DNA from: Halioglobus sp.
GTDB lineage: Bacteria; Pseudomonadota; Gammaproteobacteria; Pseudomonadales; Halieaceae
Direction: 5' to 3'
Assembly (NCBI GenBank): GCA_965227955.1
Contig: OZ245784.1
Location: 2,206,031 to 2,270,030, forward strand
DNA length: 64,000 nt
The notes under the pieces are model-generated. The model searched no databases. It saw only the letters and a program-made list of their open reading frames with translations, and was not told where the DNA came from. The position numbers and the translations under genes were made by a program. Positions 12,087-38,919 of the stretch are shown here, one piece after another (the stretch's first letter is position 1; every line of letters begins with the position of its first letter).

Positions 12087-12092
12087 TGGGCG

Positions 12093-20302: not shown

Positions 20303-20318
20303 CGCAAGTTGCGTACCA
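20303..20318 (-). promoter_or_regulatory. Candidate sigma-54 promoter TGGTACGCAACTTGCG
   Basis: Near-consensus TGGYAC-N5-TTGC read on the minus strand, about 60 nt upstream of the GNAT start. It would also read through to prsT. Confidence 0.6.
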
Positions 20319-23007: not shown

Positions 23008-23822
23008 GACAAACGCGCACCGTTCAACGCCTCGGCGCCGGCCTGCTGTGCCTGTGGGCACTGGCGGCGCGCGCCGAGACCCCCGCCGTCGATGCCGAGG
23101 GCAGCGCCGCCGATCGCGGACTCGCGGTGGCGCAGGAGGCCGACCGGCGGGACGCCGGCTTCGGCGACACCACGGCGGACCTCACCATGCTGCTCAACCT
23201 GTCCGAGGCGGGCCAGGTCGAGCGCAGCATGCGACAGATGGTACTGGAGGTGGCCGACGACGGGGACAAGAGCATCATGGTGTTCGACCGGCCGCGGGAC
23301 CTGCAGGGCACCGCCATTCTCACCTTCACCCACAGGACGGGCCCCGACGACCAGTGGCTGTACCTGCCCGCGCTGAAACGGGTCAAGCGCATCTCCAGCG
23401 CCGACAAATCCGGCCCGTTCATGGGCAGCGAGTTCGCCTACGAGGACCTCGCCTCGCAGGAGGTGGAGAAATACGGGTATCGCTACCTGCGCCGGGAAAC
23501 CCTGGACGGGGTCGAGTGCCACGTGGTGGAGCGTGTACCGGTGGACCCGAAATCGGGGTACTCGCGACAGGAGGCCTGGTTCGACACGGAGGAGTACCGG
23601 CTGCGCCGCGTCGATTACTTCGACCGCAAGGGCGACGCGCTGAAAACCATGACCCTCACCGGTTACCGGCAGTACTTGCAACAGTACTGGCGTGCGGATG
23701 AAATGCACATGTCCAACCACCAGAGCGGCAAGAGCACACTGCTGCGGTTCAGCAATTACCAGTTTCGCGTGGGCCTGAAGGACAGGGATTTCAGCCGCGG
23801 TGCGCTGGCGCGCATTCGCTGA
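23004..23822 (+). CDS. Outer-membrane lipoprotein-sorting (LolA-like) periplasmic protein
   Basis: Signal peptide LLCLWALAARAE. Motif DQWLYLPALKRVKRISSADKSGPFMGSEFAYEDL, which I recall as typical of LolA-like partners of MMPL transporters. ATGA overlap with the transporter. Confidence 0.75.
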   Translation: MRQTRTVQRLGAGLLCLWALAARAETPAVDAEGSAADRGLAVAQEADRRDAGFGDTTADLTMLLNLSEAGQVERSMRQMVLEVADDGDKSIMVFDRPRDLQGTAILTFTHRTGPDDQWLYLPALKRVKRISSADKSGPFMGSEFAYEDLASQEVEKYGYRYLRRETLDGVECHVVERVPVDPKSGYSRQEAWFDTEEYRLRRVDYFDRKGDALKTMTLTGYRQYLQQYWRADEMHMSNHQSGKSTLLRFSNYQFRVGLKDRDFSRGALARIR

Positions 23823-23847
23823 CCACGTCGCCAGATCCGGAGATCGA

Positions 23848-25626: not shown

Positions 25627-26619
25627 TCAGGCGGCTTTCCGGCGGGAGAGACCGGCGCCAGCCAGCAGGCCCGCACCCAGCAGCAGCAGGGTGGCCGGGA
25701 CCGGCACTTCCTGGGATACCAGCGTCTGGGCAGAGGCCGCGTAGGACACCGCGTACGTGCCGCTCTCCAGGCCGGTGATGGTCAGGCTGAAGAAGCCGTT
25801 GCCACTGTCGTCCAGGGTCACACCGTTGGTGGCCGTGGTGGAGTTGGCGTTCAGGTTGCCCGCCTCCACGGAGGCACAGGACACTGCGCCGGGACCGCTA
25901 CACTCGACGATACCCGCGTTGGCACCACCTTCCGGTACCCACTCGATCTCGGTACCGTTGCTGGCGGTGATGGTCACGCTGGAGGAGATCACACCCAGGG
26001 CCACGCCCTGTGAAAGACCGGTGATGTCGGCGATCGCGTTCCAGTCCGCGTTGAAGGCCAGGGCGATGCCGCCGCCCGGATCGTCCAGGGTGAACTCGAA
26101 GTTCAGGGACGTGGTGGAGGCCACGTTGGCGGACGCAGAGGCGATAAAGCCGCCCTGCAGGTTGCTCTCCGCTACCACGGCGGCCGACGTGGCCGGATCG
26201 CCGACCAGCTGCGCGTCTGCGATCACGGACTCCGCGTTGGAGTACTGGCCGGTCTGGGCGAACAGCGTGTTCACGTCATTGTCAGCACGGTTGACGTCGC
26301 CGCCGGGGGCATTTTGTACCGGGCCGCTGAGCACGATGCCGGGGCCGGGGCCACCGCAGGTGCCGGGACCGACGCCGTTGCCGAAGCAGTCCTGGATGAA
26401 TCCACCGGAAGAGCCGCCGTTCAGGGACGCGTTCGCGGAAGTGGTGAAGTTCCAGAGGCCGGGGCCGGTGCCGCCGGTCAGGCCGGAAATCTCCGTGGTG
26501 AAGTCGGTGACTACCAGGCGCCCGAGGCCGTATACATCGGCGGAGGCCTGTCCCGACACGCCCAGGGTCGCTGCTGTTGCCAGCGCCGCCGCGAGCGATT
26601 TCAGTGCTGTTTTCTTCAT
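25627..26619 (-). CDS. PEP-CTERM sorting-domain protein (putative exosortase substrate)
   Basis: Signal peptide MKKTALKSLAAALATAATLGVSGQASA. Gly/Thr/Ser/Ala/Asn-rich body. C-terminal sorting signal VPVPATLLLLGAGLLAGAGLSRRKAA (a Pro motif, then a TM helix, then a basic tail). Ribosome-binding site GGGAGA. The internal ATG at 26619 is preferred over the track start at 26733. Confidence 0.8.
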   Translation of the reverse strand: MKKTALKSLAAALATAATLGVSGQASADVYGLGRLVVTDFTTEISGLTGGTGPGLWNFTTSANASLNGGSSGGFIQDCFGNGVGPGTCGGPGPGIVLSGPVQNAPGGDVNRADNDVNTLFAQTGQYSNAESVIADAQLVGDPATSAAVVAESNLQGGFIASASANVASTTSLNFEFTLDDPGGGIALAFNADWNAIADITGLSQGVALGVISSSVTITASNGTEIEWVPEGGANAGIVECSGPGAVSCASVEAGNLNANSTTATNGVTLDDSGNGFFSLTITGLESGTYAVSYAASAQTLVSQEVPVPATLLLLGAGLLAGAGLSRRKAA

Positions 26620-26710
26620 GGCTAGTCTCCCTAACTTGCCGTTACCGTTGAAAACCTTGCGACCTGCGCCCTGTCCTGGGCCGGCCGAAAATTTCGTTCG
26701 GAAGATAAAA

Positions 26711-26726
26711 AGCAAGGCATGTACCA
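26711..26726 (-). promoter_or_regulatory. Candidate sigma-54 promoter TGGTACATGCCTTGCT
   Basis: Near-consensus -24/-12 element on the minus strand, in an AT-rich tract about 92 nt upstream of the PEP-CTERM protein start. Confidence 0.7.
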
Positions 26727-26884
26727 ATGTCATATTATTTCTTTATTTTCAGTAAGTTACAAACTTCGCCAATGTTTCAGCGCCCCGCCAAACCGCGTTT
26801 TGTAAAAAATCCTGACGGGGCCGGGCGAGGATCACGCCATTACCACTGGTTATGGCGGGGTGATCGCGACGGCCGCCCGGGGCA

Positions 26885-29668
26885 TCAGCCGGCGGACAGC
26901 TCCGCCAGCAGCTCCCTGGCGCGGGCCAGCACCGCCGGGTCCTCGGCCTCGTCGACCACGGTGCGCAGCTGCGCGGTGGCCTCCCGGGTCCGGCCCTGGG
27001 CGGCCAGGAGGCGGGCGAGGTTGACCCGGTACTGCATGTTCCGGGGCTGTACCTCTACCGCTTTCGCCACCATGTTGGCCCCCGCCACAGTCTTGCCGCT
27101 GTCCGCGAGCAGGCTGCCGTAGGTATCGAGCACCACCGGGTCCTCCGGCAGCAGTTCGTGGGCCCGTTTCGCGTAGTCCAGCGCCCTGTCCAGGTCGCGC
27201 TCGCGCTCCAGCCAGGCCAGGTTGTTCAACGCCACGATGGAGGCCGGCGCCAGCGACAGCATCTCTTCATACAGCGCTATGGCTTTCTCCGGGTCCGTCG
27301 TCACGGCGCCCTCCGCCTGCATGGCGAGCAGGGTGAGGTCCTCGGGGAACTCCCCGCGCCAGTGTTCCAGTTCGGCGAGGGAGCCCTCCCGGTCGCCGAC
27401 CGTGGCCAGGGTGATGGCCAGCATCAGCGCCGACTCGGGGTTCGGGTCGAGTTCCAGGACCTTGCGGAAGGACTCCTCGGCCCGCTCGAAGCGCTGTTCG
27501 CGCACGGCCAGCCAGCCCTCCATGCGCCAGATCTCGACCCTGTCCCCGGTCGCCTCCGCGAGCACCTTGTCCATCACCGCACGCGCCTGTGCGAGGTCGC
27601 CCGCCAGGCCGTGCATACGCACCTGGGCCAGTCGCGCGGGCAGGTACTTGCCGTTGATGGCGACAGCCCGGTCGAGGGCCGCCATCGCGCCCTCGAAGTC
27701 ACCCTGGGCGGCGAGCGCTTCGCCGTGGAAATAGTTGGCCAGCACCGAGTCCGGCGAGACCTCGACCCACTGCTCCCAGCTGCCCTGTGCCATGTCGCCC
27801 TGGCCGAGGTTGGCGAAGGACTTGCCGCGCAGCTCCATCAGGGACGGCTGGGCGAGGACCCACTCGTCCTTCAGCTTCTCCGTCAGCACGATCACCTGGT
27901 CGTATTCACCGGCGTCAAACCGCAACCGCACCAATCGCGCGCGAACAGCGTGGTTGGCAGGGTCCTGGTTGAGCAGTTCCTCCAGTGCGGCGGTAGCGTC
28001 CGAGGGCTGGTCCTCGCGCACTACGAGACCGGCCAGGTAGGAGCGGGCGAGACCGTCCTCCGGGTGTACCTCCAGGTAGTCCGTCAGCAGGGTGCGCGCC
28101 CTGGCGCGCTCCCCGGTGGCGTCGTAGATCTTCGCGAGGTTGCGTGTCGTGGAGGGGTCGTGGGGGTCGAGTTTGAGGATGGCTTCCATGGTCGCGCGGC
28201 CGGCCGCGAAATCGCCGCCGATCATCTGCCCGGCAGCCACCACCTTCAGCGCGTCGCTGCGCTGGGGGTACTGGTTGTGCAGGTTCTGCGCCATGGCCAT
28301 CGACTCCTCCACCCGGCCCTTTTTCAGGGCCGCGGCAGCGGACAGCAGGACGTTCGAGTACTGGCTCTCGTCGATGGTGCCCTGCGCCACCTCCAGGTCC
28401 CGGGCGATGTAGTCGCCCCGCACCGTGCGCGCCTCCTCGAGGGCGCGCTGGGCCCGCTCCTCCTCGGGGTCCAACGCCAGCACACGCTCGAAATAGTCGA
28501 CCGCGGAATCGTGGTCACCCTCGACCATGGCCAGTGCCCCGAGCATCCCGAGCACCGGCACGTTGTCGTCCCCAGAGCGCTCCAGCGCGTCCTGCAGGAT
28601 CTCCTGGGCGGAATCGACATCGAGGCGCTGGCTCTGCAGCGTCGCCCGCATGCGCGCCACGGTCGTGGACCTCGGAACCTGCTCGTAGAGCTGGCCGAGC
28701 AGCACGTCCGCCTGCTCGAAGCGCTCCTGTTCCAGCAGCGCCGCCACGAGGTACATCTTCATGGGAACATTGCGCGGCAACGCCTCGAGCCCCTTGGTCA
28801 GCTCGGCAGAGGCGCCGGCGTAGTCCTCCTTCATGTACAGGGAGACCCCGCGCACCTGGTGCACATAGGCGAGCTTGCCGAGGCCCGCCTTGCGCAGCTC
28901 CCGCAGGTCGTGCTCAGCCAGGCCGATTTTGCCCAGGCGCAGGGCCGTCATGGCGCGCCGCGCGTTGACCATGTTCACGTAGCCGCGGCTCTCGATGGAT
29001 TTCGAATAGGCCTCGTAGGCGCCGGCCAGGTTCTCCTCGGCGGCCAGCAGGTCGCCCTTCAGCGCCAGGGCATCCGGCGATTCCGGGTCCAGCTCCAGCG
29101 CCCTGTCCACCCACTCCCGCGCCCTCTCCAGGCTGCCCACCCGCGCCTCGAAGGACGCGGTCGCCGCCAGCACCAGTGCAGACTCGGGATCCAGTTCCCG
29201 TGCCGCTTCCAGGGTCTTGCCCGCCAGCTCGAAATCCCCGAGCTCCATCAGCGCGAGACCGCGCCAGGCCATGATCTCACCCTGCACTGTCGGCGAGGGC
29301 TCCTCGGGGAACTCCTCTGCCTCCTCCACCAGCTCCTCGTACTTGCCCTGCAGCATGAGGGAGCGGGTCAGCAGCAGCGCCGCCTCGCTCGCGTTCATGC
29401 CCATTTCCCGGGCGCGCCTGATCTCCTTCTCAGCCTCCGCACCCAGCCCGAGGTCGAGGTGGACGTAGGCCATCTCCCGGCGGATCTGCATGTTGAAGGG
29501 CGCCTTCTGCGCCGCGTTCTTCAGTTCGATCTGGGCGCCCAGCAGGTCGCCTGCGTCGCGCAGCATGCCGGCGTTGGACAGGTGCTCCTCCGTGGTCAGT
29601 TCCCTCTCGCACGATGCGGTGAACAGCGCCACCAACAGCACCAGCAGCGGTGTGATCCTGTTACGCAT
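26885..29668 (-). CDS. Second PrsT-like TPR-repeat lipoprotein
   Basis: Lipobox ALFTASC. About 927 aa of TPR repeats. The N-terminus is colinear with PrsT (TTEEHLSNAG.. versus TSEEHLADGK..). Ribosome-binding site GGGAGG 8 nt before the ATG at 29668. Confidence 0.8.
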   Translation of the reverse strand: MRNRITPLLVLLVALFTASCERELTTEEHLSNAGMLRDAGDLLGAQIELKNAAQKAPFNMQIRREMAYVHLDLGLGAEAEKEIRRAREMGMNASEAALLLTRSLMLQGKYEELVEEAEEFPEEPSPTVQGEIMAWRGLALMELGDFELAGKTLEAARELDPESALVLAATASFEARVGSLERAREWVDRALELDPESPDALALKGDLLAAEENLAGAYEAYSKSIESRGYVNMVNARRAMTALRLGKIGLAEHDLRELRKAGLGKLAYVHQVRGVSLYMKEDYAGASAELTKGLEALPRNVPMKMYLVAALLEQERFEQADVLLGQLYEQVPRSTTVARMRATLQSQRLDVDSAQEILQDALERSGDDNVPVLGMLGALAMVEGDHDSAVDYFERVLALDPEEERAQRALEEARTVRGDYIARDLEVAQGTIDESQYSNVLLSAAAALKKGRVEESMAMAQNLHNQYPQRSDALKVVAAGQMIGGDFAAGRATMEAILKLDPHDPSTTRNLAKIYDATGERARARTLLTDYLEVHPEDGLARSYLAGLVVREDQPSDATAALEELLNQDPANHAVRARLVRLRFDAGEYDQVIVLTEKLKDEWVLAQPSLMELRGKSFANLGQGDMAQGSWEQWVEVSPDSVLANYFHGEALAAQGDFEGAMAALDRAVAINGKYLPARLAQVRMHGLAGDLAQARAVMDKVLAEATGDRVEIWRMEGWLAVREQRFERAEESFRKVLELDPNPESALMLAITLATVGDREGSLAELEHWRGEFPEDLTLLAMQAEGAVTTDPEKAIALYEEMLSLAPASIVALNNLAWLERERDLDRALDYAKRAHELLPEDPVVLDTYGSLLADSGKTVAGANMVAKAVEVQPRNMQYRVNLARLLAAQGRTREATAQLRTVVDEAEDPAVLARARELLAELSAG

Positions 29669-29743
29669 TGACTCGGCCTCCCTGCGGCTAATGCGGGCAT
29701 TATGGCCCGCCATCAGTAGTTCGTATACTGCCCGGCTGTTTCC

Positions 29744-29830
29744 AAGACCCGCTGATTGAAACAGCTTTTACTAAGACCCGCTGATCGGAACCGCTTTTAC
29801 TAAGATCTGCTGCTTGAACCGGCTTCTGAG
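29744..29830. repeat. Three tandem 29-bp direct repeats spanning the stop codon of the acyltransferase gene
   Basis: Unit 1 is aagacccgctgattgaaacagcttttact. Unit 2 is aagacccgctgatcggaaccgcttttact and matches unit 1 at 26/29. Unit 3 is aagatctgctgcttgaaccggcttctgag, matches at about 18/29, and is coding. Confidence 0.85.
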
Positions 29831-30483
29831 ACCAGCGGCTTCGCGGGCATCCCGCCCCAGCGCTCCCCCGGCCCGATGCGCGTCCCCTTGGCGACCACCG
29901 CGCCCACCGATACCACCGCCCCGTCGCCGATTACCACCCCGGGCATGACGGTGGCCTTGGCGCCGATGGTGACGTTGTCACCTATGCGCACCGCTTCCAG
30001 GGCCATGTGGGCGCCCTCGATCACGTGGGAAAACAGCACAGCGTCGTGTCCGATGATGGTGTTCGCACCCAGCTCGGTGAGGGCGGGGTCGAGAATGGCG
30101 CCGCCGCTGTAGGTGTTCGCCCCCATCTTCGCGCCAAGGGCGAGGTAGACGAGGCGCATGATGGGCGTCGGTACGAAATGCGTGCGTATCAGCGGGTAAA
30201 ACAGGACCAGCCGAAACAGGGTGTCCACCTGGTAGGCGAACTCCTCCTGGGAGCCCTCGGGCAGGTCGCCCTCCACCAGTGGCAGGAACTGGTGGGAGAG
30301 CCGGTAGAGCAGGAAAGCCCAGAGATAGAAAACGAACAGGAACACCAGCAGCCAGGCCACGGCATAGAAATCGCCGGCCCAGGCGCGGCTGACGAGTGCG
30401 AGCGTGGTCGCCAGGGCCAGGACGGCGATGAGCGTCAGCAGTGTCGCGAAAACGGCCACCTGCGCCGCAGAGATCTTACGCAT
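29800..30483 (-). CDS. Membrane-anchored hexapeptide-repeat (left-handed beta-helix) acyltransferase
   Basis: Two N-terminal TM helices (VAVFATLLTLIAVLALATTLALV, VAWLLVFLFVFYLWAFLLY). LbH repeats follow (IGHDAVLFSHVIEG, IGDNVTIGAKATVMPGVVIGDGAVVSVGAVV). The ATG at 30483 overlaps the glycosyltransferase stop by 8 nt. Confidence 0.75.
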   Translation of the reverse strand: MRKISAAQVAVFATLLTLIAVLALATTLALVSRAWAGDFYAVAWLLVFLFVFYLWAFLLYRLSHQFLPLVEGDLPEGSQEEFAYQVDTLFRLVLFYPLIRTHFVPTPIMRLVYLALGAKMGANTYSGGAILDPALTELGANTIIGHDAVLFSHVIEGAHMALEAVRIGDNVTIGAKATVMPGVVIGDGAVVSVGAVVAKGTRIGPGERWGGMPAKPLVSEAGSSSRS

Positions 30484-31747
30484 GTTGCACCTCCTGCGTG
30501 TGTCGCCCGTGCCCGGACCAGGGTGCGGCGGACTCCTCGAGGAACCGCGCAAACCCGGCGACGCCGTCCACCGCGGCGGACTCTGCCGCCAGGGCTTCGG
30601 CAGCGCGTGTAAAGGAAGGCTCCTGGAGCAGCCTCTGCAGCGCCGTCGCCAGGGTCGCCGACGTCAGGTTGTCCGCGCGCAGGCAGAGTCCCGCTCCCAC
30701 TCGCTCCAGGGCCTGCATGTTGAGAAACTGGTCCAGGTTGCCGGCGATACCCAGGACAGGCCTGCCACAGGCCAGCGCCTGCTGGGTGGTCGGGCTGCCG
30801 CCGTTGCACACCACGACAGCGGCGCGGCGCGCTGCCAGGTGACCCGGGAGGTAGGGCGCCACCCACACATTGCCCGGCAAGGTCGGCGTCCCGGCGCCGG
30901 CGGTGGCGACCATGGCCGCCACGGGCAATTCGGCCAGCGCCTGCAGCAGTGCGGGCAGCATCCCGGCATGCCCGGAACTGCCGGGCGTGGCGTAGACCAG
31001 CGGTCGGTCGTCCGGCAGCGCGTCCCACCAGTCCGGGACAACCGCGGACGGCGACCAGGGAACCGGCCCTATCACCCGGTGGTTGGCGGGCAGGGGACGC
31101 ATCTCGTAAAGCCCGGGAATATCGCAGTACAGCGTGTAGTCGCCGTGCGTGTACACCCGCCGCAGATCGGGTCCGAGGGAGGGCAAACCGTGACGCCTGC
31201 GCAGGGCCGCCATGGGCCGGCTGTGCAAAGCAAAGGCGAAAGGCCGCGCGGCACTGAACAGCCACTGGCCCAGCCGTGGACCCAGCGCCCGGGTCACCGG
31301 GAGGTCGGGGGCCGGGTAGCCCTGTTGCGCATAGGGCGACCAGCAGGCATTGCCCAGGGTCACGCTGGGCACACCGCGAATCTGGGCGGCCACCGGCAGG
31401 GAGAGGCGGAAGTCCCCGACGACGAGGTCCGGCCGCACCGCGTCGAGCAGGCCCAGGTCGGCCTCGAGGTAGGCTTCGAGCGTCGCCAGATCGTACAGCG
31501 GGGCGCCGCGCGCCAGGGCCGCGGTGAACTGGCCCGGCTCGATCGAATGGACGGCGTGTTCGGTGCAATGCAGGTCGCCGAGCAGTTCGCGGTAGCGCGG
31601 GCACTGGGCGATGTGCACTTCCCAGTGCGCTGGATCGAGACCCGCCGCCAGGGCGGCGGGTCTGGCGACGTGCGCGAGGGTAACCGCCTCTGCCACGAAC
31701 AGGATGCGCGTCCTGTTCCCGGCCGTGTTGTCGACGCTCATGACCAT
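30476..31747 (-). CDS. GT-B glycosyltransferase of the UDP-glycosyltransferase/MGT type
   Basis: N-terminal RILFVAEAVTLAHVARPAALA. C-terminal nucleotide-sugar motif VVCNGGSPTTQQALACGRPVLGIAGNLDQFLN. Confidence 0.75.
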   Translation of the reverse strand: MVMSVDNTAGNRTRILFVAEAVTLAHVARPAALAAGLDPAHWEVHIAQCPRYRELLGDLHCTEHAVHSIEPGQFTAALARGAPLYDLATLEAYLEADLGLLDAVRPDLVVGDFRLSLPVAAQIRGVPSVTLGNACWSPYAQQGYPAPDLPVTRALGPRLGQWLFSAARPFAFALHSRPMAALRRRHGLPSLGPDLRRVYTHGDYTLYCDIPGLYEMRPLPANHRVIGPVPWSPSAVVPDWWDALPDDRPLVYATPGSSGHAGMLPALLQALAELPVAAMVATAGAGTPTLPGNVWVAPYLPGHLAARRAAVVVCNGGSPTTQQALACGRPVLGIAGNLDQFLNMQALERVGAGLCLRADNLTSATLATALQRLLQEPSFTRAAEALAAESAAVDGVAGFARFLEESAAPWSGHGRHTQEVQHA

Positions 31748-31752
31748 GCGCC

Positions 31753-33711
31753 TCAGCCGTCGGCACCGACCAGCAGTTTTTCGAGGGCCGGCCTTGTCGA
31801 ACGCGAGCGGGGCGCGGGACCGAAGCCGAGGCGACCCATGTAGACCCTCCCCGCCTCGTTGCCGCGATCACCGAGCAGATCGGCGAGCTGGCCGGAGAGC
31901 CGCTCCGCGAGCGCCTGCTCGCCGGCGACCGCGGTGAACTGCATGCCCCGATGCACGTACCTCGAGAAGATCACCGGGGTCATCTCCGGTTGCAACTGCA
32001 GGTTCTGTCGGGTCGCCTCCAGCCAGAATCGCTGCACGGCGCGGCCGCCAGCGATAAAGTCGTCCACCCCGGCCAGGGGACGGTCGGCGACGATGGCGAA
32101 GTGTGCGCCGCAGCGCAGCCCGGTGGCGAGGTCCATCTGCAAGCGCGGCAACCAGGTGCCGGCGAAGAAGCGGTTGAGCACCTTGACGCGTCCCCAGCTG
32201 CCCAGCGCCCAGCGCATGATACGCCGGGTCAGCGGGTCGACACCCAGCGCGTACTCCGGGAGGCGGTCCTCGCTGTAGCGCGCACCCCACTCGATGTTCT
32301 GCCGGTGCACCTCGTAGGCCTCGGGCGTCGCCAGGCGGATGTGGGCGTTGTGAAACAACAGCTTCGCGACGCTTCGCCGCACAGCGCCCTCCAGCCAGAT
32401 GACCCGGTAGCCCTCGCCGACGGCCGACTCCAGTGCCCCCTTTTGCGTCGCCGACAGCGGCCGCGTGGACAGTGGCCGGCGCTGCGTGGTGCGCGCGGCG
32501 ACGAAAGGCAGCAGCGGGCTCGGCGCCACACCCTCTCCCGCCGCCAGCTCGACATCGATGCGCAAGGCGGTGTCGGGCGTATCGGGGCGACGCCGGCACC
32601 GGGCGATCATCCCCTCCCCCGACGCCGCTATTTCGATGGACTCCAGCAGCGCGCCGACCGCTATCTGGCTGGAGGTGCCGTCGAGGTCGTAGACACACCA
32701 GTCACGGGTGTCGTGGGCGTGCACGACCGCGCGGCTGTCGTCCACGATCTCGAAGCGCCAGGGTTGCTCGTTGTCCCCGCTCGGCGCCCAGCGCGCAATG
32801 TCGAGTACGCGCTCGATCCCTCGCTGCCGCGGCGCGCCGGTGCCCGGCGCGGTCTCGCCCTTGGCCATGACCATACGCCGCGCCACCGCCAGGCCGAGGC
32901 GCTGCAGCGGATTGTTGTTGCCCCAGGGCCGCCAGGTGGTGGCCAGGCGGTTGCGGTAGGCATCGAAATGGATGCCGCGCGGCGCCAGCGGCACCGGGCC
33001 GCGGTCCAGCAGCAGCTTGAGCGCGAAGGTACCGGCAAATCCCGCGCACAACTCGCAGGCCATCGGCGTCGACGGGCCCTTGCGGGCGTTGAAATCGACC
33101 CGGGTGTCGTCGGCGAGGTAGGACATCTGCAGGCGCGCCGGCGCCAGTCCCAGCATGAAGCGCAGGGCCTGCTCGTCCGCGTCCCGGCCCGCCATGCGAA
33201 AATAGTCCTCGTAGCTCATACCCCCCGGGGCGAACACCAGCAGCGCTGCGCCCATACCGAGCGGCGCGGCGGTCACCGCCGGTATGCCGCGCTGCGCGCA
33301 GCCTGCGAAAACCTGGTTGCGGATATCCAGCGCGAAGAAATCCAGGCTGTCGACGTAAAGGTCCACGCCGTCCAGGAAGCGATCGAGATTCTGCGCGCTC
33401 ACGCCCTCCTCGAAGCGGGCGATGTCGAGCCCCGGGTTGATGTCGAGCGCGGCCTCCGCCAGGACGTCGACCTTGGGGCGGTCCAGGTTGCTGACGAAGG
33501 CGCCGGCCTGGCGGTTGAAATTCTGGATTTCGAAGCGGTCGAAGTCGGCGATAGTGAAGTTGCCGATCCCCAGGCGCGTCAGCGTCAGCAGGTGGCTCCC
33601 GCCGACGCCGCCGAGACCCGCGATGGCGACGCGCTTGCCGCGCAGGATCTCCTGTTCCGCCTCGGTGACCCAGCCGATGTTGCGGGAAAAGGCTGCGCGG
33701 TAATCAAACAT
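31753..33711 (-). CDS. ThiF/MoeB-type E1-like adenylyltransferase fused to a nitroreductase-like (Acg-type) FMN domain
   Basis: N-terminal half: GKRVAIAGLGGVGGSHLLTLTRLGIGNFTIADFDRFEIQNFNRQ (E1 nucleotide-binding fold). C-terminal half: LDIARWAPSGDNEQPWRF plus a second nitroreductase-like lobe. A single 652-codon ORF. Confidence 0.75.
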   Translation of the reverse strand: MFDYRAAFSRNIGWVTEAEQEILRGKRVAIAGLGGVGGSHLLTLTRLGIGNFTIADFDRFEIQNFNRQAGAFVSNLDRPKVDVLAEAALDINPGLDIARFEEGVSAQNLDRFLDGVDLYVDSLDFFALDIRNQVFAGCAQRGIPAVTAAPLGMGAALLVFAPGGMSYEDYFRMAGRDADEQALRFMLGLAPARLQMSYLADDTRVDFNARKGPSTPMACELCAGFAGTFALKLLLDRGPVPLAPRGIHFDAYRNRLATTWRPWGNNNPLQRLGLAVARRMVMAKGETAPGTGAPRQRGIERVLDIARWAPSGDNEQPWRFEIVDDSRAVVHAHDTRDWCVYDLDGTSSQIAVGALLESIEIAASGEGMIARCRRRPDTPDTALRIDVELAAGEGVAPSPLLPFVAARTTQRRPLSTRPLSATQKGALESAVGEGYRVIWLEGAVRRSVAKLLFHNAHIRLATPEAYEVHRQNIEWGARYSEDRLPEYALGVDPLTRRIMRWALGSWGRVKVLNRFFAGTWLPRLQMDLATGLRCGAHFAIVADRPLAGVDDFIAGGRAVQRFWLEATRQNLQLQPEMTPVIFSRYVHRGMQFTAVAGEQALAERLSGQLADLLGDRGNEAGRVYMGRLGFGPAPRSRSTRPALEKLLVGADG

Positions 33712-33766
33712 CGTTGCGCACGCGTCTTACCCGTGCAGACCCGGCCCGCCGCGATGCGCGAGGTAA

Positions 33767-34513
33767 TCAGCCACCATAACCCCGGGCGATGCGCTCGTGC
33801 ACCTCGAGATAAAGCTCCTTCAGGTCCGGCCGCATGTTGTCGAGGGCCGACTGAGTGCGGATGAAGTAGGGGGCGCGCATGCCGTGATAGTCGATGTCCT
33901 GGCCCACCCGATCGAACACAATGCCCGAGCGCTGCAGCAGCCGCGGCAGGAAAGGCTCCATCATGGCGAAGACATCCGTGCGGCCGGAGATTGCGGTCAG
34001 CGCAGTCGCCGCGAGAAAACAGGTGACGGCTATCATGGAGAAAGTACGGCGCTCCTGCTGCGAGCAGTCCAGGCCCTCGATTTCACCGAAGCGCGTCACA
34101 CTCTCCCCCGAGCGCCGCCGGAACGCGCCGTCCACCGCGAGCCGCGAGATTTCGCAGACCCGGCCGCGATCGACCTGCAGCGCCCCCAGCCGCTCGAGGT
34201 CGAGGCTCTCGGCGCAGTTCTTCTCGAAAGGCAGCGGGTCGGCGCCCCCGTCACCGGTGGGCAATACCATGCGCACACACCCGGCGGCCAGGCCGGAGGA
34301 CTTGTGGAGGATCACCGCGTGTACGGAGGTCGCGTCAAACTCGTCGGTTTCCTGGCCGTTCGGAAAGGCCTCTGCGGGTTCGTAACCGAACTCCTGGCAG
34401 TAAACCCGGTAGCGGATACCGAAGACCTCGTCGCGCTGGGACTCGGACGCGGCGAAGTCCACGTCGAAATAGCGCAGGAAATTCTCACTCAATGGATAGC
34501 GCATGCTTCCCAC
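33767..34513 (-). CDS. PEP-CTERM/exosortase-system-associated acyltransferase (FeeM/LuxI-like N-acyl amino acid synthase family)
   Basis: Segments FGIRYRVYCQEFGYE, AAGCVRMVLP and VCEISRLAVDGAFRRR match what I recall of the TIGR03694-type family. GTG start at 34513, or ATG at 34504. Confidence 0.75.
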   Translation of the reverse strand: MGSMRYPLSENFLRYFDVDFAASESQRDEVFGIRYRVYCQEFGYEPAEAFPNGQETDEFDATSVHAVILHKSSGLAAGCVRMVLPTGDGGADPLPFEKNCAESLDLERLGALQVDRGRVCEISRLAVDGAFRRRSGESVTRFGEIEGLDCSQQERRTFSMIAVTCFLAATALTAISGRTDVFAMMEPFLPRLLQRSGIVFDRVGQDIDYHGMRAPYFIRTQSALDNMRPDLKELYLEVHERIARGYGG

Positions 34514-34644: not shown

Positions 34645-35154
34645 CTAGCGCCCCCCCTGTACCCCCAGGTGCGCCTCCAGGTGGGGCAGGAACCCGGCCA
34701 TCGCCCGGTGCAGCAGGACGAGCACCTCCTCGAAGCCGCTGAGGCTGCCGTAGTAGGGATCGGGAATATCGCCGACGTCGCCCTCGGGGCACCAGGAGCC
34801 GAGCAGGGAGACGCGGCGCCTCAGGTGTACCGGGGCATTCTCCTGAAGCCACTCCAGGTTGCGGCTGTCCATCGCCAGGATAAAGTCAAAGCGCGAAAAG
34901 TCCTCCCCGACCACCTGCCGCGCCCGTGTGCGGCGCAGGTCGATGCCCTCCCGGGCGCAGACCTGTTGTGCGCGGCCGTCAGCGGGATGCCCCGGCTGCG
35001 TCGCGTTGGTGCCCGCCGAGTCCAGGCGCACCTTGCGCTTCAGCCCGCGCAGCGCGAGCTCCTCCCGCAGCAGTCCCTCGGCCATTGGCGAGCGGCAGAT
35101 GTTTGCGGTACAAACCAGCAGGACCGACGCGGAGTAGCGCGCTGCGAAAATCAT
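34645..35154 (-). CDS. Low-molecular-weight protein-tyrosine phosphatase (Wzb-like)
   Basis: P-loop VCTANICRSP (CX5R) and Asp loop DIPDPYYG. Confidence 0.9.
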   Translation of the reverse strand: MIFAARYSASVLLVCTANICRSPMAEGLLREELALRGLKRKVRLDSAGTNATQPGHPADGRAQQVCAREGIDLRRTRARQVVGEDFSRFDFILAMDSRNLEWLQENAPVHLRRRVSLLGSWCPEGDVGDIPDPYYGSLSGFEEVLVLLHRAMAGFLPHLEAHLGVQGGR

Positions 35155-35221: not shown

Positions 35222-36352
35222 TCAGGGGTGGGCATTCCCACGTGTCTCACTGTAGCGCGTAATCAGCCAGGCCATCGTCGGGAACAGCAGCGGATCGGTC
35301 AGGGCCGGCGTACCGGCGCCGACATAGCGCTGCACCCACTCGATCAACAGCAGGCCCAGCGCGATCGCCAAAACCCGCGGCGCGGCGGGCGGTCGACCCG
35401 CGACCAGCAACAGTGCCACGGCGCCGAACACGAATATCTTGCGGCACAGGGCCTGGGCGTTGACCAGCATCGAGCCCTGCAGGTAACCGATGAAGGGCAG
35501 CCAGCCGAACTCGCGACTCTCCTCCCTGAGGTGCAGCGGGCCGATCGCGTCCACGGCAAAGGCGATGCAGAGTCCCCAGCCCAGCGTCACACCCGATACC
35601 CGCCCGTTCACCGCGGGCCACAGGACCAGCGCGAGGACCACCGACACCACCGCGGTCAGGCTGAGGTGATTCTCGATGATGACCAGCTGCAGGGTGAGTA
35701 CCGCGAGCGCCCCGGCGACAAGCGTCGTCCCGCGCAAACGCAGGCCCGCCCAGTGTGCGAGCAGGTGCAGGAAGACCAGCCAGGAGAGCGTGGTCACCAG
35801 GCACGCCTGCCAGGAAAATCGCAGCAGGGGCCATAGGGGGAACAGCGCCTCGCGCCATGCCTGCGGATCCAGGGACGGCACAAAGGGAACGAGCTGGCTG
35901 GCGAGCCAGAACCCGGCAATCACCAGGGGCAGGTGACGCGCGGTATCCTCGCCCCTGCCCCCCAGTGGCAGGACCCGGCCGGTAAGCCAGCCCAGGGCGC
36001 CGCCGAGCACATTGACATAGAAGTCGAAAATCGACGGGTCACGGCCGGGTGTGAACAGCTGGCCGAGCTGGCACGCGGCGGAGAGGAGCACGCCGCCCAG
36101 AGCCAGCGCCAGTGCACCGCGTGCGCCGCCGCGCGCGGCGAGCAGGCAGGCCAGGTAGCCGTAGGGGAAAAACAGCACCAGGTTGCCGAGGATGTCGCCG
36201 ATACTGTTGACCTCCCGCCACGAGGCGAGGAAGCCGGCCCAGACGGTCTCGTCCACCGGCAGTGTGAACCAGAACGGGAACAGGGACCCGTAGAGGATGC
36301 CCAGACACACCAGGGCGAAGAGGGGCTGCAGTACGGAACGCTGCCGGCTCAA
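35222..36352 (-). CDS. VanZ-like polytopic membrane protein with extra C-terminal TM domain
   Basis: VanZ-type motif SIGDILGNLVLFFPYGYLA within 3-4 N-terminal TM helices, followed by about 6 more TM helices. TTG start, so the start is uncertain. Confidence 0.6.
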   Translation of the reverse strand: MSRQRSVLQPLFALVCLGILYGSLFPFWFTLPVDETVWAGFLASWREVNSIGDILGNLVLFFPYGYLACLLAARGGARGALALALGGVLLSAACQLGQLFTPGRDPSIFDFYVNVLGGALGWLTGRVLPLGGRGEDTARHLPLVIAGFWLASQLVPFVPSLDPQAWREALFPLWPLLRFSWQACLVTTLSWLVFLHLLAHWAGLRLRGTTLVAGALAVLTLQLVIIENHLSLTAVVSVVLALVLWPAVNGRVSGVTLGWGLCIAFAVDAIGPLHLREESREFGWLPFIGYLQGSMLVNAQALCRKIFVFGAVALLLVAGRPPAAPRVLAIALGLLLIEWVQRYVGAGTPALTDPLLFPTMAWLITRYSETRGNAHP

Positions 36353-36405
36353 GGAGATCTCGCCGGGTTCGACCGGCTCACCGGGCGGCCGCGGCCATGC
36401 CCCGC

Positions 36406-37206
36406 TCAGGGCGTCTCGAGGAGCCGGTGTACATATTCCGCCGGTATGGCGAAGGTGATGCCGGTGGGCTGCGAGAGCATCGATTCCCGGCTCTCCTTGA
36501 CCATCACGCTGTTGATGACGCCGATGACCCGGCCCGTCTCGAGTTCAAACAGCGGGCTGCCGCTGTTGCCCGGGTAGGCGGTGGCATTGAGCTGGAAGAC
36601 ATTGAAGCTCTCGCGCAACAGGCGTATGTGCACATCCTCGAGGTCCCGGGCGTTCTCCAGCGGGCGCGCTATGGGTGTGATCGCCGCGACGATACCGTGG
36701 TGCGTGGCCGGGTAGAGTCCGAGCACGTTGCCGATGGGGAATCCGGTAAAGGCGACCGCCTGGCCCTCGCGCACCCGGTCCGACTCTCCCAGTTCGAGGG
36801 CGGGCACCGGCTCGCCATCAAAGCGCAACAGGGCGAGATCCCGCGTGTCATCCCGGTGCACCTCCGTCGCGGGCCGCACCCTGGCACGCGCGCCGCGCCC
36901 GGTGAACACTGCCAGTATCTGGTTGTTGTCGACATCGAGAGCGTCGGGAACGACGTGGGCGTTGGTGACCACGTGGCGACCGTCGCCGACCACGAAGCCC
37001 GTGCCGTGGTAAACCACGGGGTCGCGGCCACCGGTCGGCTGTCGCGGTGGGTAGACCGCACCGATCGCCACTATCGAGGGGCGGATGCGCTCGACAAGTT
37101 CCGGCAGGCCGTCGCCGCGTGCCACCTGTGCCAGGCAGAGCATCAAGGAAAGGAAAGCCAGGCGAATCAAGCTGTGTTCTCCGTCACAGTTCACGTTGGC
37201 GCACAT
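36406..37206 (-). CDS. Secreted trypsin-like (S1/DegP-core, no PDZ) serine protease
   Basis: Signal peptide LIRLAFLSLMLCLAQVARG. Catalytic contexts TNAHVV (His), DLALLRF (Asp) and GNSGSPLF (Ser). Only the last 266 codons of the 889-aa track ORF are credible. Confidence 0.8.
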   Translation of the reverse strand: MCANVNCDGEHSLIRLAFLSLMLCLAQVARGDGLPELVERIRPSIVAIGAVYPPRQPTGGRDPVVYHGTGFVVGDGRHVVTNAHVVPDALDVDNNQILAVFTGRGARARVRPATEVHRDDTRDLALLRFDGEPVPALELGESDRVREGQAVAFTGFPIGNVLGLYPATHHGIVAAITPIARPLENARDLEDVHIRLLRESFNVFQLNATAYPGNSGSPLFELETGRVIGVINSVMVKESRESMLSQPTGITFAIPAEYVHRLLETP

Positions 37207-37317
37207 TGTCCCGTCCCGTTTTTCGTTCGACAATCCGCCGTATTGCCGGGTATGGACATGGGCTACAATAGCTGTTTTCGCCCGCAAATCCCACAGGATC
37301 CCACCGACACCGGAACC

Positions 37318-38919
37318 ATGCCCGACCTGATACACGAGTTTATCGAGCACAGTGCTCAGGTCTCGCCGGACGCCACCGCACTGCTCTTCAAGGACCACAC
37401 GCGAAGCTACGCTGAACTGTGGACGGACGTGCAGCGGGTCGCTGGCGCCCTCATCGATATGGGCATCGGTGCCGGCGAGCGCGTCGCGGTCTACCTGCCG
37501 AAACAGTTCGAGACCGTTGCCGGACTGTTCGGCGCCGCGGCTGCGGGTGCCAGTTTCGTCCCCGTCAATCCACTGCTCAAAGCGCGCCAGCTCGCCCACA
37601 TTCTGCCCCACTGCAACGTGCGCGTGCTGATCACGTCGGCGCAGCGACTGGAGGGCATTCGCGAAGTGCTGGACGACTGCCCGGACCTGCACACGGTGGT
37701 ACTGACCAACTGCGAGGCGGGCGCAGCGGCGGCGCTGCCAAAACAGGGTTTTCTCGCCTGGGACGACTTCACCTCGCGCGGCCATCCCGGCGCCGGACAC
37801 CGGCGCATCGACACAGACATGGCCGCCATCCTCTATACCTCCGGCAGCACCGGCAACCCGAAGGGCGTGGTCCTGTCCCACCGCAACATGGTGGCCGGTG
37901 CGCACAGCGTGGCGACCTACCTCGGCAACACGGCCGCCGATCGCCTCCTCGGCGTCCTGCCCCTGAGCTTCGACGCGGGCCTGAGCCAGCTCACCACGGC
38001 GTTCTCCGTCGGCGCCTCGGTGGTCCTCATGGACTACCTCCTGCCCCGGGACGTACTGCGCGCGGTGGCCCGGCACGGCGTCACCGGGCTCGCGGCGGTA
38101 CCGCCACTGTGGAACCAGCTGCGCGACCTGGAATGGCCGCCGGAAGCGGCCGCCTCGCTGCGCTATATCACCAACACCGGCGGCAAGATGCCCGTGGCGA
38201 CAACCCGCGCACTGCAGGCGGCGCTCCCGGACACCGCCGTGTTCCTGATGTACGGCCTCACCGAGGCCTTCCGCTCCACCTACCTGCCCCCCGACCAGGT
38301 AGACGTGCGACCCGACTCCATCGGTGTGGCGATCCCCAACGCGGAGATACTCGTGGTGGACGAACACGGCAGGGAGTGCGGCCCGGAGGAACCGGGAGAA
38401 CTGGTGCACCGGGGCGCGCTGGTCTCGCTCGGTTACTGGAACGACCCGGAGAAAACCGCCGCGCGCTTCAAGCCCGCCCCGGGACGCCCCGGCGAGATAC
38501 CCACCGAGGAACTGGCGGTGTGGTCCGGCGACCAGGTGAAAAGGGATGCCGAGGGTTACCTCTATTTCATCACCCGCCAGGACGAGATGATCAAGACCTC
38601 GGGTTACCGCGTCAGCCCCACCGAGGTGGAGGAGGTGGCCTTCGGTTCCGGACTGGTCAGCGGCGCCGCGGCTCTCGGCCTGCCCCACGAGGCGCTGGGC
38701 CAGGCCATCCTGCTGGTGGTTACCGCGGCGGGCACCGGGACCGGGGAGGACAGCCTGGAGGACACGCTGCTCGCCCACTGCCGTCGCGAGCTGCCCAACT
38801 ACATGGTGCCCCTGGCGATCGCGGCCCGCGACGCCATGCCCCACAACCAGAACGGCAAGATCGACCGCCGCGCCCTCGCCGACGAGTACGGCGACATGTT
38901 CCAGGAGGCCGCGCGTTGA
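37318..38919 (+). CDS. Acyl-CoA ligase (AMP-forming), exosortase-A-system-associated type
   Basis: AMP-binding motifs LYTSGSTGNPKGV, YGLTE and GDQVKRDAEGYLYFITRQDEMIKTSGYRV. The ATG at 37318 is in frame within the longer track ORF. Confidence 0.85.
   Translation: MPDLIHEFIEHSAQVSPDATALLFKDHTRSYAELWTDVQRVAGALIDMGIGAGERVAVYLPKQFETVAGLFGAAAAGASFVPVNPLLKARQLAHILPHCNVRVLITSAQRLEGIREVLDDCPDLHTVVLTNCEAGAAAALPKQGFLAWDDFTSRGHPGAGHRRIDTDMAAILYTSGSTGNPKGVVLSHRNMVAGAHSVATYLGNTAADRLLGVLPLSFDAGLSQLTTAFSVGASVVLMDYLLPRDVLRAVARHGVTGLAAVPPLWNQLRDLEWPPEAAASLRYITNTGGKMPVATTRALQAALPDTAVFLMYGLTEAFRSTYLPPDQVDVRPDSIGVAIPNAEILVVDEHGRECGPEEPGELVHRGALVSLGYWNDPEKTAARFKPAPGRPGEIPTEELAVWSGDQVKRDAEGYLYFITRQDEMIKTSGYRVSPTEVEEVAFGSGLVSGAAALGLPHEALGQAILLVVTAAGTGTGEDSLEDTLLAHCRRELPNYMVPLAIAARDAMPHNQNGKIDRRALADEYGDMFQEAAR

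Follow-up and report, generated by a model that had tools for sequence, protein, structure and literature searches.

What is made by four tightly packed genes that encode a protein resembling N-acyl amino acid synthases, a ThiF::nitroreductase fusion, a glycosyltransferase, and a membrane acyltransferase (genes A to D) in Halioglobus sp.? The earlier note on the window (the whole stretch of DNA analyzed, 64,000 nucleotides) read the set as a small-molecule lipid pathway, not polymer assembly, and knew of no characterized pathway with this composition. Our analysis supports the first point. The second does not hold for two of the four genes, because A and B match oxzAB (bioRxiv 10.1101/2020.06.11.147165), with further relatives in TyzACB (PMC10404671), TrzAS (PMC12856293), and the stieleriacine core (PMC7293339, PMC12479983). 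Judged by sequence, A and B are a recognizable copy of the known oxzAB pathway; C and D are uncharacterized additions that recur with oxzAB-type pathways. We consider it probable that the cassette as a whole is an extended oxazolone-lipid (tyrazolone/N-acyl-dehydro-amino-acid) operon inside an XrtA/PEP-CTERM exopolysaccharide (EPS) locus.

Inspection of the sequence bore out the described layout, with A to D co-directional and closely spaced on the minus strand at 29800-34513. The genes and their neighbors, in the direction of minus-strand reading, are as follows:
36406-37206, minus strand: trypsin/HtrA-like protease (family match), upstream and co-directional.
35222-36352, minus strand: VanZ-like membrane protein (family match), upstream and co-directional.
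34645-35154, minus strand: low-molecular-weight phosphotyrosine phosphatase (family match), upstream and co-directional.
33767-34504/34513, minus strand: gene A, 245-248 aa, predicted OxzA/NasY-type N-acyl amino acid synthase, TIGR03694.
31753-33711, minus strand: gene B, 652 aa, OxzB-type ThiF::nitroreductase di-domain protein, predicted oxazolone synthetase.
30476-31741, minus strand: gene C, 421 aa, GT1-family (GT-B) glycosyltransferase of natural-product type.
29800-30483, minus strand: gene D, 227 aa, two N-terminal TM helices and a left-handed beta-helix (LbH) acyltransferase domain.
26885-29713, minus strand: second PrsT, directly downstream of D.
25627-26733, minus strand: EDSAP-1 family PEP-CTERM protein (NF041538, 171 bits, plus PEP-CTERM domain).
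23004-23822, plus strand: LolA-like protein (Pfam LolA_like), candidate exporter component.
20413-23007, plus strand: MMPL-family RND transporter (Pfam MMPL), candidate exporter of the product.

Gene A lies immediately upstream of B on the same strand with a gap of 55 nt, B and C are separated by 11 nt (5 nt with an alternative start), the end of C overlaps the start of D by 8 nt, and 86 nt separate D from the second PrsT, whose match to TIGR02917 (472 bits) agrees with the PrsT-like gene proposed to follow the cassette directly. The length of D is counted from MRKI...; a 250-aa open reading frame opens at a TTG further upstream. Third-position GC content of the four genes (0.83-0.89) is as for real genes (window GC 65-69%), and genes A to D are also what a separate gene prediction gives on a public contig of identical sequence. 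The window also holds the XrtA-system genes PrsK, PrsR, both PrsT, and the EDSAP-1 PEP-CTERM protein, along with members of the XrtA/PEP-CTERM families TIGR03098, TIGR03099, TIGR03013, TIGR03007, TIGR03018, TIGR03027, and TIGR03015.

Gene A belongs to TIGR03694 (219.6 bits, cut-off 111.95; aa 10-243 on profile positions 2-238 of 241), the PEP-CTERM/exosortase system-associated acyltransferase family, and lies within this XrtA/PEP-CTERM locus; its Pfam matches are Acetyltransf_5, FeeM, and Autoind_synth. The curated name of TIGR03694 itself ties the family to the exosortase system, a tie also attributed to Craig et al. 2011 where that work is cited elsewhere. We predict that A is an OxzA/NasY-type N-acyl amino acid synthase, which would make long-chain N-acyl amino acids.

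Gene B combines an N-terminal ThiF domain (PF00899, aa 9-257) with a C-terminal Acg/Rv1355c-type nitroreductase-like domain (aa ~290-646, of which the Acg-family model NF047509 covers aa 302-575). Alignment with MoeB places its adenylation site at GLGGVG (aa 32-37), D56, R67, K80, and D124, opposite MoeB G41, D62, R73, K86, and D130, which we take to be the ATP-site residues of that enzyme. In B and its relatives, these residues and the GLGGVG motif are invariant among 25 homologues. In an AF2 model, the N-terminal domain resembles ThiF (1zud, TM 0.82) and the C-terminal domain MsAcg (2ymv, TM 0.71), the structure reported to be nearest to the TrzS oxidase domain (PMC12856293). The Rv1355c family model NF005901 matches B across both domains in two stretches (190.7 bits, cut-off 476), and B falls below the curated cut-offs of both the Rv1355c (TrzS) and PRK14851 models. 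Thus, although homologous, B is not a TrzS orthologue.

The architecture of OxzB, a single chain of ~650-680 aa with a ThiF domain followed by a nitroreductase-fold/FDO domain, is present in B. Over 648 aa, B shares 75% identity with MAT91603.1 (P0363; 658 aa, Halioglobus sp., contig PABK01000010.1), which agrees in its organism, its length, the dataset, and the gene order with entry A0A2E0YTU5 in Table S1 of de Rond et al.; the connection of B to the validated OxzB of Pseudoalteromonas rubra (A0A5S3UR53) is indirect, as it runs through that table entry. In the Halioglobus OxzB-like entry, oxzA is the gene directly upstream, in the same orientation (bioRxiv 10.1101/2020.06.11.147165). Likewise, the OxzA/OxzB pairs of P. 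rubra and other Proteobacteria, which make tyrazolone/phenazolone, have an N-acyltransferase gene just upstream of a ~650-aa ThiF-nitroreductase gene and on its strand. We therefore predict, because A and B match the oxzAB pathway, that B forms an oxazolone as an ATP-dependent cyclase and O2/FMN-dependent desaturase; the role of "activate or redox-tailor" step first proposed for it was too vague.

A classical E1-like role for B on the C terminus of a protein or peptide (candidates being a sulfur carrier, the precursor of a RiPP, or a PEP-CTERM protein after processing), in which case A would acylate a macromolecule and not a free amino acid, would fit the structural neighbors of the B N-terminal domain (ThiF, MoeB, MccB, and PaaA) and the fact that characterized ThiF-like enzymes other than OxzB act on proteins, peptides, or tRNA (PMC12596934). 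We nevertheless regard it as very improbable: for three systems with this di-domain architecture and an acyltransferase gene upstream, biochemistry has shown that free N-acyl amino acids are the substrates, a search of 25-40 kb turned up no ThiS/MoaD-like small open reading frame with Gly-Gly at its end, and the C-terminal Gly-Gly of A is not conserved among its homologues.

OxzAB, TyzACB, and TrzAS have been biochemically reconstituted (bioRxiv 10.1101/2020.06.11.147165, PMC10404671, PMC12856293). The TyzACB/TrzAS systems of Mycobacterium tuberculosis use an N-acylase, a ThiF cyclase, and an NTR-fold flavin oxidase, as predicted for A and B, and TrzS (Rv1355c) has the same fusion and domain order as B (PMC10404671, PMC12856293). 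The tyz genes are flanked by the MMPL transporter gene mmpL9 (PMC10404671), and an MMPL gene also lies near the cassette here. Clusters for stieleriacine, for thalassotalic acid, and for kyonggic acid share the core of NasY, ThiF, and nitroreductase, but as separate ThiF and nitroreductase genes, and their tailoring is by methyltransferases; the stieleriacine cluster of Stieleria maiorica contains a gene for a PEP-CTERM protein, and EPS genes adjoin the cluster (PMC7293339, PMC12479983). On chemical reasoning, we infer that the products of these clusters, N-acyl dehydrotyrosines, are ring-opened tyrazolones.

What sets the present locus apart from OxzA/OxzB is that a translationally coupled GT1 and a membrane LbH acyltransferase follow A and B, inside an XrtA/PEP-CTERM locus. 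Some oxzB genes do cluster with predicted glycosyltransferases, to which the OxzA/OxzB paper gives one sentence, with exosortase not mentioned (bioRxiv 10.1101/2020.06.11.147165). The mycobacterial reports describe no glycosyltransferase, LbH, or PEP-CTERM context (PMC10404671, PMC12856293), and no glycosyltransferase or LbH acyltransferase is described for the stieleriacine-type clusters (PMC7293339, PMC12479983). In the literature searched, we found no report of glycosylated oxazolones or glycosylated N-acyl dehydrotyrosines.

Gene C matches EryCIII-like_C (65.1 bits, cut-off 31.7), Glyco_tran_28_C (30.3, cut-off 22), and UDPGT (23.9, cut-off 19.5). Pfam gave no GT4/Glycos_transf_1 domain and only a sub-threshold Glyco_trans_1_3 match (20.3 bits, threshold 25); C was also under the cut-offs of the MGT subfamily TIGR01426 (49.9 bits, cut-off 260) and the activator-dependent glycosyltransferase family TIGR04516 (84.2 bits, cut-off 440). 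The closest solved structures are CalG1 (1.3e-19), SpnG, OleD, and CalG2/3, and all PDB neighbors are natural-product GT1s. CalG1 (calicheamicin), OleD, and SpnG are phenol/aglycone GT1s that have the GT-B C-terminal donor-binding domain in common with C; the likeness does not extend beyond the C-terminal half and reaches about 74 bits at most. The Halioglobus japonicus orthologue of C is called a "PGL/p-HBAD biosynthesis glycosyltransferase" in automated annotation. By these family and structure matches, C is a GT1 nearest to natural-product glycosyltransferases, and the expectation that it would lie outside the polymer-building GT4 enzymes held.

Gene D matches Pfam Hexapep (39 bits, cut-off 27) behind two strong hydrophobic helices (aa 13-31 and 41-59). 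Across 34 homologues, the MRKI N terminus, D132, E207, and His153 (in 33 of 34) are conserved, which suggests His153 as a catalytic-type residue. Its best NCBIfam match is to one unit of the Pls/PosA C-terminal domain (TIGR02353, 71.2 bits, cut-off 423). We rejected an assignment as a Pls/PosA NRPS C-terminal domain: the score is below the cut-off, and D is a single, free-standing TM-TM-LbH unit, not tandem or NRPS-fused.

Do C and D belong to the same pathway as A and B? They could instead serve EPS modification because the cassette sits in a polysaccharide locus. On that account, only A and B make a small molecule (a plain tyrazolone or N-acyl dehydro-amino acid), C and D modify another target of the XrtA system (for example, the EPS, a repeat unit linked to lipid, or a glycoprotein of the PEP-CTERM type), and they adjoin oxzAB only because both are in one regulon or locus. 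The window is indeed a large XrtA EPS locus, and hexapeptide acyltransferases often O-acetylate polysaccharides; D weakly matches WcaF, NeuD, and EpsC. Genome neighborhoods centered on A (42 gammaproteobacterial loci with both flanks complete) tie A to B: a ThiF homologue lies within 10 kb of A in 28 (nitroreductase-fused in 16 of those 28). Most of the oxzAB loci lack C and D, with C present in 8 of the 42 and D in 5, which leans toward separate roles. The earlier note proposed to check whether the four-gene order is kept across genomes with the TIGR03694-type synthase; in general it is not, and exact A-B-C-D order is restricted to Halieaceae-like lineages.

Neighborhoods centered on C, taken from metagenomes, point the other way. 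ThiF plus nitroreductase lies within 10 kb of C in 13 of the 15 loci with both flanks complete, and a D-like gene is present in 10 of these 15. The arrangements vary (same strand, divergent, or with an RND pump in between), and the partners stay together despite inversions and insertions. Co-conservation was borne out for C, D, and ThiF/nitroreductase, which occur together in many loci, in several arrangements. The loci in which C accompanies ThiF plus nitroreductase include some with no PrsT match (L095, L107, L111, L119, L139, and L147), and a distant planctomycete-like locus (L162) has FeeM/NAS, ThiF, nitroreductase, and a C-type GT1 near an exosortase gene. This four-part module is also seen again with an MMPL or a MacB exporter. 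Among the 26 informative C-centered loci, the ThiF gene is missing nearby in 4, and in L105, L149, and L160, C homologues stand beside PrsT/PEP-CTERM genes with no ThiF gene within reach, as separate roles would predict. Weighing these counts together with the membership of C in GT1, with natural-product relatives rather than polymer-building GT2/GT4 enzymes, we consider it rather unlikely that C and D act apart from A and B.

The wider neighborhood is also partly conserved. Lipid exporters (MMPL, RND, and MacB) and PEP-CTERM/exosortase genes are often near C. MMPL orthologues (39-69% identity) adjoin ThiF or C homologues in five loci (L043, L048, L055, L140, and L163) and lie in the vicinity, not adjoining, in four (L062, L079, L083, and L089), and RND or MacB pumps occupy this position in other lineages. 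Upstream, the order Lig(-)/Tryp/(VanZ)/PTP/A/B repeats in L163 and in loci of Halieaceae and Porticoccaceae, and Neptunomonas loci have the Lig/Tryp/VanZ/PTP/A/B genes nearby but arranged otherwise. Downstream, D, PrsT, and EDSAP-1 follow in the same order in L003, L005, L006, L082, L087, L089, and L090.

For the extended oxazolone-lipid operon, we propose the following route, in which the first two steps draw on homology to characterized enzymes. Gene A would N-acylate an aromatic L-amino acid, most likely tyrosine, from a medium- or long-chain acyl-CoA or acyl-ACP. The ThiF domain of B would then adenylate the free carboxylate, allowing the amide oxygen to close the ring of a 5(4H)-oxazolone, and the FMN-dependent nitroreductase-fold domain would desaturate the C-alpha/C-beta bond with O2, giving an N-acyl "azolone" that would slowly hydrolyze to an N-acyl dehydro-amino acid. 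GT1 enzymes like C glycosylate natural-product aglycones, phenols included. From its family and gene neighborhood, C may attach a sugar, with the phenolic hydroxyl as the most plausible site. Membrane-tethered D may acylate the resulting glycolipid at the inner membrane face, and the MMPL/LolA-like system encoded nearby may export the amphiphile, which could act in the EPS/floc matrix under control of the PEP-CTERM system.

The role suggested in the earlier note, in which the cassette would yield either a diffusible signal that PrsK/PrsR senses or the exosortase lipid acceptor for PEP-CTERM proteins, would account for the XrtA-system genes on both sides of the cassette (PrsK/PrsR 13 kb away) and for the exosortase tie in the TIGR03694 name and the Craig et al. 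2011 attribution. Stieleriacines change the composition of biofilms (PMC7293339), oxazolones, like many signals, are prone to hydrolysis (bioRxiv 10.1101/2020.06.11.147165), and a study of Methylomonas LW13 describes disruption of the homologue and an assay of its effect on polysaccharide band formation (PMC11072679). We find this role quite unlikely, however: upstream of A we found no sigma-54 promoter-like site, unlike two neighboring genes, which have such sites; a glycosylated oxazolone would offer no obvious amine nucleophile to a transpeptidase; and oxzAB also occurs in organisms, mycobacteria included, for which exosortase/PEP-CTERM goes unmentioned (bioRxiv 10.1101/2020.06.11.147165, PMC10404671, PMC12856293).

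Oxazolone and N-acyl-dehydrotyrosine lipids were found separately, between 2020 and 2025, without a clear function, and the locus offers a link between that literature and the exosortase literature. The gene for the exosortase-linked synthase heads an oxzAB-type operon in many Gammaproteobacteria, and a defined sub-family extends this operon with a glycosyltransferase of natural-product type, an acyltransferase of the membrane, and exporters of lipids. From the extended operon we predict glycosylated lipids of a new class, built on oxazolone or dehydro-tyrosine. With the core enzymology established by earlier work, the gain here is an incremental one, unless the product turns out to be the lipid partner of the exosortase system. 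As a long shot, the exosortase-linked synthase would feed the oxazolone synthetase, and the azlactone, or a derivative glycosylated and acylated by C and D, would be a lipid used by the PEP-CTERM/exosortase system; its part could be to lipidate EPS or sorted proteins, as acyl donor or anchor, or to drive floc formation as a glycolipid of the matrix. If this were true, the exosortase system would gain its missing small-molecule partner.

Four adjacent minus-strand genes, here called A to D, make up the cassette:

33767-34504, minus strand: A, OxzA/NasY-type TIGR03694 N-acyl amino acid synthase, 245 aa
31753-33711, minus strand: B, ThiF::nitroreductase (NTR) fusion of the OxzB type, 652 aa
30476-31741, minus strand: C, GT1 glycosyltransferase, 421 aa
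29800-30483, minus strand: D, hexapeptide-repeat (LbH) acyltransferase with two transmembrane helices, 227 aa

A and B are separated by 55 nt and B and C by 11 nt, C and D overlap by 8 nt, and the second PrsT gene (PrsT2) starts 86 nt past D. The earlier note had placed four same-strand genes at 29800-34513 with a PrsT-like gene directly behind them, and this layout is borne out by the spacing, by a strong bias in third-position GC (0.83-0.89; the surrounding window has 62-70% GC), and by an independent gene call on the identical public contig, which gives the same four genes of 245, 652, 421, and 227 aa. The family named for each gene was likewise matched in profile searches. A motif search found no terminators or sigma-70 promoters inside the cassette, which is consistent with, but short of proof of, a single transcription unit; Rfam models gave zero matches across the whole window. 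The 86-nt gap between D and PrsT2 holds two tandem copies of a 29-nt unit (29744-29799, minus strand) composed of a 27-nt core, TAAAAGC[G/T]GTT[C/T]C[G/A]ATCAGCGGGTCTT, and 2 nt. The unit has no further copy in the window (chance expectation 0), and we rejected it as a shared regulatory box since it is confined to this gap; it may be a site of regulation or result from a recent duplication.

We found that A and B are a predicted oxzAB-type pathway. Against TIGR03694, the model for the PEP-CTERM/exosortase-associated acyltransferase, A scores 219.6 bits, above the curated cut-off of 112, and it also matches the Pfam families Acetyltransf_5, FeeM, and Autoind_synth. Profile searches assign aa 9-257 of B to a ThiF domain and aa ~290-646 to a nitroreductase-fold domain of the Acg/Rv1355c type, and the Rv1355c family model matches both at 190.7 bits, under its equivalog cut-off. 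The ATP-site residues of B align with those of MoeB and are unchanged in 25 homologues. In an AlphaFold2 model (mean pLDDT 78), the N-domain resembles ThiF (TM 0.82) and the C-domain MsAcg 2ymv (TM 0.71, E 4e-11). A PDB sequence search with B returned relatives of the ThiF domain only and no solved OxzB; the oxidase domain is recognised solely via the NCBIfam profile and the fold comparison. The link to the published OxzB catalogue runs through P0363 (MAT91603.1), a 658-aa protein from a Halioglobus MAG (contig PABK01000010.1) that is 75% identical to B over 648 residues and whose upstream neighbour (locus L005) is 76% identical to A. It matches an entry in Table S1 of de Rond for an OxzB-like protein of Halioglobus sp. 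that is likewise 658 aa long, comes from the same MAG study, and has oxzA as its direct upstream neighbour (bioRxiv 10.1101/2020.06.11.147165).

The earlier note had stated that no characterised pathway has this composition, which does not hold for the A and B half. The oxzAB system has in common with A and B a ThiF-nitroreductase di-domain protein behind an N-acyltransferase. OxzA makes N-acyl-Tyr or N-acyl-Phe, OxzB converts these in an ATP-dependent manner to oxazolones named tyrazolones and phenazolones, and the usual place of oxzA is just upstream of oxzB, in the same orientation (bioRxiv 10.1101/2020.06.11.147165). M. tuberculosis has two routes for the same chemistry: TyzA with a separate ThiF protein, TyzB, and a flavin-dependent oxidase, TyzC (PMC10404671), and TrzA with the fusion TrzS (Rv1355c), for which cyclisation precedes desaturation and the nearest structure to the oxidase domain is MsAcg, 2YMV (PMC12856293). 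A core of NasY, ThiF, and nitroreductase has also been proposed for the stieleriacines, thalassotalic acids, and kyonggic acids, all N-acyl dehydrotyrosines (PMC12479983, PMC7293339).

Of note, A ends in RGYGG (33767-33775), a Gly-Gly end as in E1 substrates, just upstream of the E1-like gene. This end is absent from 24 homologues and is therefore probably a coincidence. We rejected a ubiquitin-like substrate for B, because the only Gly-Gly-ending ORFs in 25-40 kb are A and a spurious GC-rich ORF.

Conservation was followed in two sets of loci (L numbers), both searched with the window's proteins. The first, centred on relatives of A with one genome per species, returned 80 loci, all from Gammaproteobacteria; because it used two exact peptide motifs and stayed within that class, it is uninformative on TIGR03694 in Betaproteobacteria or other phyla. 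Among the 42 loci whose flanks each reach 9 kb or more, a ThiF homologue lies within 10 kb in 28, of which 16 have the full fusion protein, and PrsT is present in 24, C in eight, and D in five. The ThiF gene is directly downstream of A in 16 loci, and other loci have separate ThiF and nitroreductase-like genes. The exact A-B-C-D order occurs in Halieaceae relatives (L002-L007); in L016 (a Chromatiaceae MAG) and L046, a membrane-fusion protein and an AcrB-type RND pump stand between B and C, and many Methylomonas loci have A with no ThiF gene nearby. Checked in this way, the four-gene order is lineage-restricted rather than general to genomes with TIGR03694.

The second set comprised 80 metagenomic loci around relatives of C (45-64% identity). 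Where each flank reaches 9 kb or more, 13 of 15 loci have ThiF and nitroreductase genes within 10 kb (six fused, seven split), ten have a D-like gene, and eight have PrsT; with partial flanks, ThiF is present in 22 of 26. Counts of A here are lower bounds, since tblastn with A under-detects divergent FeeM-type synthases and missed the Pfam FeeM genes of L162 and L164. The order of the partners varies: a second lineage (L085-L090) has A-B-C-D-PrsT-EDSAP; in L107, L111, and L147, C is accompanied by D, NTR, and ThiF, found on the opposite strand; and L103, L106, and L143 have PrsT-PrsT-ThiF-NTR-C. Three annotated neighbourhoods of C homologues extend the range. L162, from a genome with planctomycete-type PSCyt/PSD genes, has exosortase EpsH, FeeM, MacB/HlyD, ThiF, NTR, GT, FeeM, and KAS III; L163 has ligase, protease, LMW-PTP, A, a second A-like gene, B, C, and MMPL; and L164 has a PEP-CTERM protein, C, D, a MacB-type ABC exporter, a LolA-like protein, FeeM, NTR, and ThiF. 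In several other loci, orthologues of the window's MMPL adjoin homologues of ThiF or C.

Several side features accompany these loci. In L016 (12781-17331, Chromatiaceae) and L018 (12889-17431, Porticoccaceae), oxzAB is directly followed by an HlyD-type membrane-fusion protein and an AcrB-family RND pump of ~1165 aa, and in L016 the C and D homologues come after the pump. A second, divergent A paralogue (26-32% identity) lies ~5 kb upstream of the main copy in Methylomonas and related loci (L024, L025, L028, L030, L032, L033, L037, L044, L065), and L163 (6054-7916) has two tandem A-type genes ahead of B; this multiplicity is reminiscent of the Stieleria clusters, which have three or four NAS genes.

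C carries a GT1 C-terminal domain (EryCIII-like_C, UDPGT, Glyco_tran_28_C), and the check for GT4 membership found no GT4 domain in the Pfam search. Its closest solved relatives are natural-product GT1s, with CalG1 best (1.3e-19), then SpnG, OleD, and CalG2/3; because it scores too low for both the MGT and the activator-dependent subfamily cut-offs, we file it as GT1 only. One orthologue is auto-annotated as a 'PGL/p-HBAD biosynthesis glycosyltransferase', a family that glycosylates a phenol. Because the phenol is free in both tyrazolones and N-acyl dehydrotyrosines, O-glycosylation at that position would be the most economical guess for C. D has hexapeptide repeats after two strongly hydrophobic N-terminal helices, and its family is well conserved across 34 homologues (MRKI N-terminus, two TM helices, LGDF(R/Y)GV linker, D132, E207, and His153, the last in 33 of 34). 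Its best profile match, far under the cut-off, is to one unit among the TM-interspersed LbH repeats with which Pls/PosA synthetases end at their C-terminus. We infer that D would transfer an acyl group at the cytoplasmic face of the membrane.

Judged by gene content, an XrtA/PEP-CTERM exopolysaccharide (EPS) locus fills the first two thirds of the window:

1.3-7.2 kb: XrtA-associated tyrosine autokinase, chain-length determinant, export protein, and ATPase
13.3-19.6 kb: PrsK, PrsR, and the first PrsT
20.4-23.8 kb, plus strand: MMPL transporter and LolA-like protein (PF17131)
directly downstream of D: PrsT2 and an EDSAP-1 PEP-CTERM protein
directly upstream of A: LMW phosphotyrosine phosphatase, VanZ-like protein, and trypsin-like protease
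other strand: exosortase-A-associated acyl-CoA ligase (TIGR03098), decarboxylase (TIGR03099), and TIGR03013 sugar transferase

The MMPL and LolA-like genes form a co-directional trio with a 579-aa AMIN-domain protein (20413-25539, plus strand). The trio is conserved close to the cassette in L083 and L089, both Halieaceae-like; the tyz oxazolone genes of M. tuberculosis are flanked by mmpL9 (PMC10404671). An HprK-related kinase A gene (8740-9645, plus strand; TIGR04352, 330 bits) lies between the EPS export genes and sugar-nucleotide genes (TviB/TviC-like, 10773-13127). The two PrsT paralogues (16792-19563 and 26885-29713, minus strand) score 619 and about 473 bits against TIGR02917, and PrsT2 orthologues at 60-62% identity occur only in loci that keep the A-B-C-D order, PrsT matches elsewhere being ~25% identical. 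The longest mechanical ORFs near the protease, 36397-38919 (plus) and 36406-39075 (minus), were rejected as high-GC artefacts; the real genes are a 266-aa trypsin/HtrA-like protease (36406-37206, minus) and the TIGR03098 ligase (plus, start near 37327), which diverge from a ~120-nt gap.

No sigma-54 site within one mismatch lies upstream of A, where it would link A to PrsR. Elsewhere, -24/-12 matches (TGGTAC-N5-CTTGC, one mismatch, minus strand) occur at 26712-26726, ~90 nt upstream of the point where the EDSAP-1 gene probably starts (MKKTALKS...), and at 20304-20318, ~60 nt upstream of a FeeM-like gene. Their positions would fit control by PrsR, a sigma-54 activator, while the window as a whole has seven such sites against 5.1 expected, not above chance. 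The FeeM-like gene (19707-20243, minus strand), between the first PrsT and the MMPL gene, encodes a GNAT protein of 178 aa whose similarity to FeeM is weak (24 bits, under the cut-off). L088 has a 61%-identical copy, and similar genes of 169-181 aa are present in the C/D locus L164. The protein may be a truncated second component resembling N-acyl amino acid synthases.

NAS genes were reportedly linked to PEP-CTERM by Craig et al. in 2011. Both the oxzAB chemistry and the presence of oxzAB in Halioglobus are already known. The stieleriacine cluster contains a PEP-CTERM gene, and a ThiF-type cyclase was proposed for its pathway (PMC7293339); one sentence records that some oxzB genes cluster with glycosyltransferases (bioRxiv 10.1101/2020.06.11.147165). 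In the literature searched, which covers few subscription journals, we found no statement that the exosortase-linked synthase usually has OxzB-type genes as neighbours, no description of the extension by GT1, membrane LbH protein, and exporter, and no glycosylated oxazolone or glycosylated N-acyl dehydrotyrosine. Such absences are weak evidence.

The proposal of a small-molecule pathway stands in part: the genes point to a lipid pathway and are co-conserved, but one half of it had been characterised before and the order of the four genes is limited to certain lineages. We consider it improbable that the activated oxazolone or its glycolipid would be the lipid partner of the exosortase system. 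We conclude that there is good evidence, from gene neighbourhoods, that C and, less consistently, D functionally belong with the oxazolone genes and that the product would be an exported lipid.
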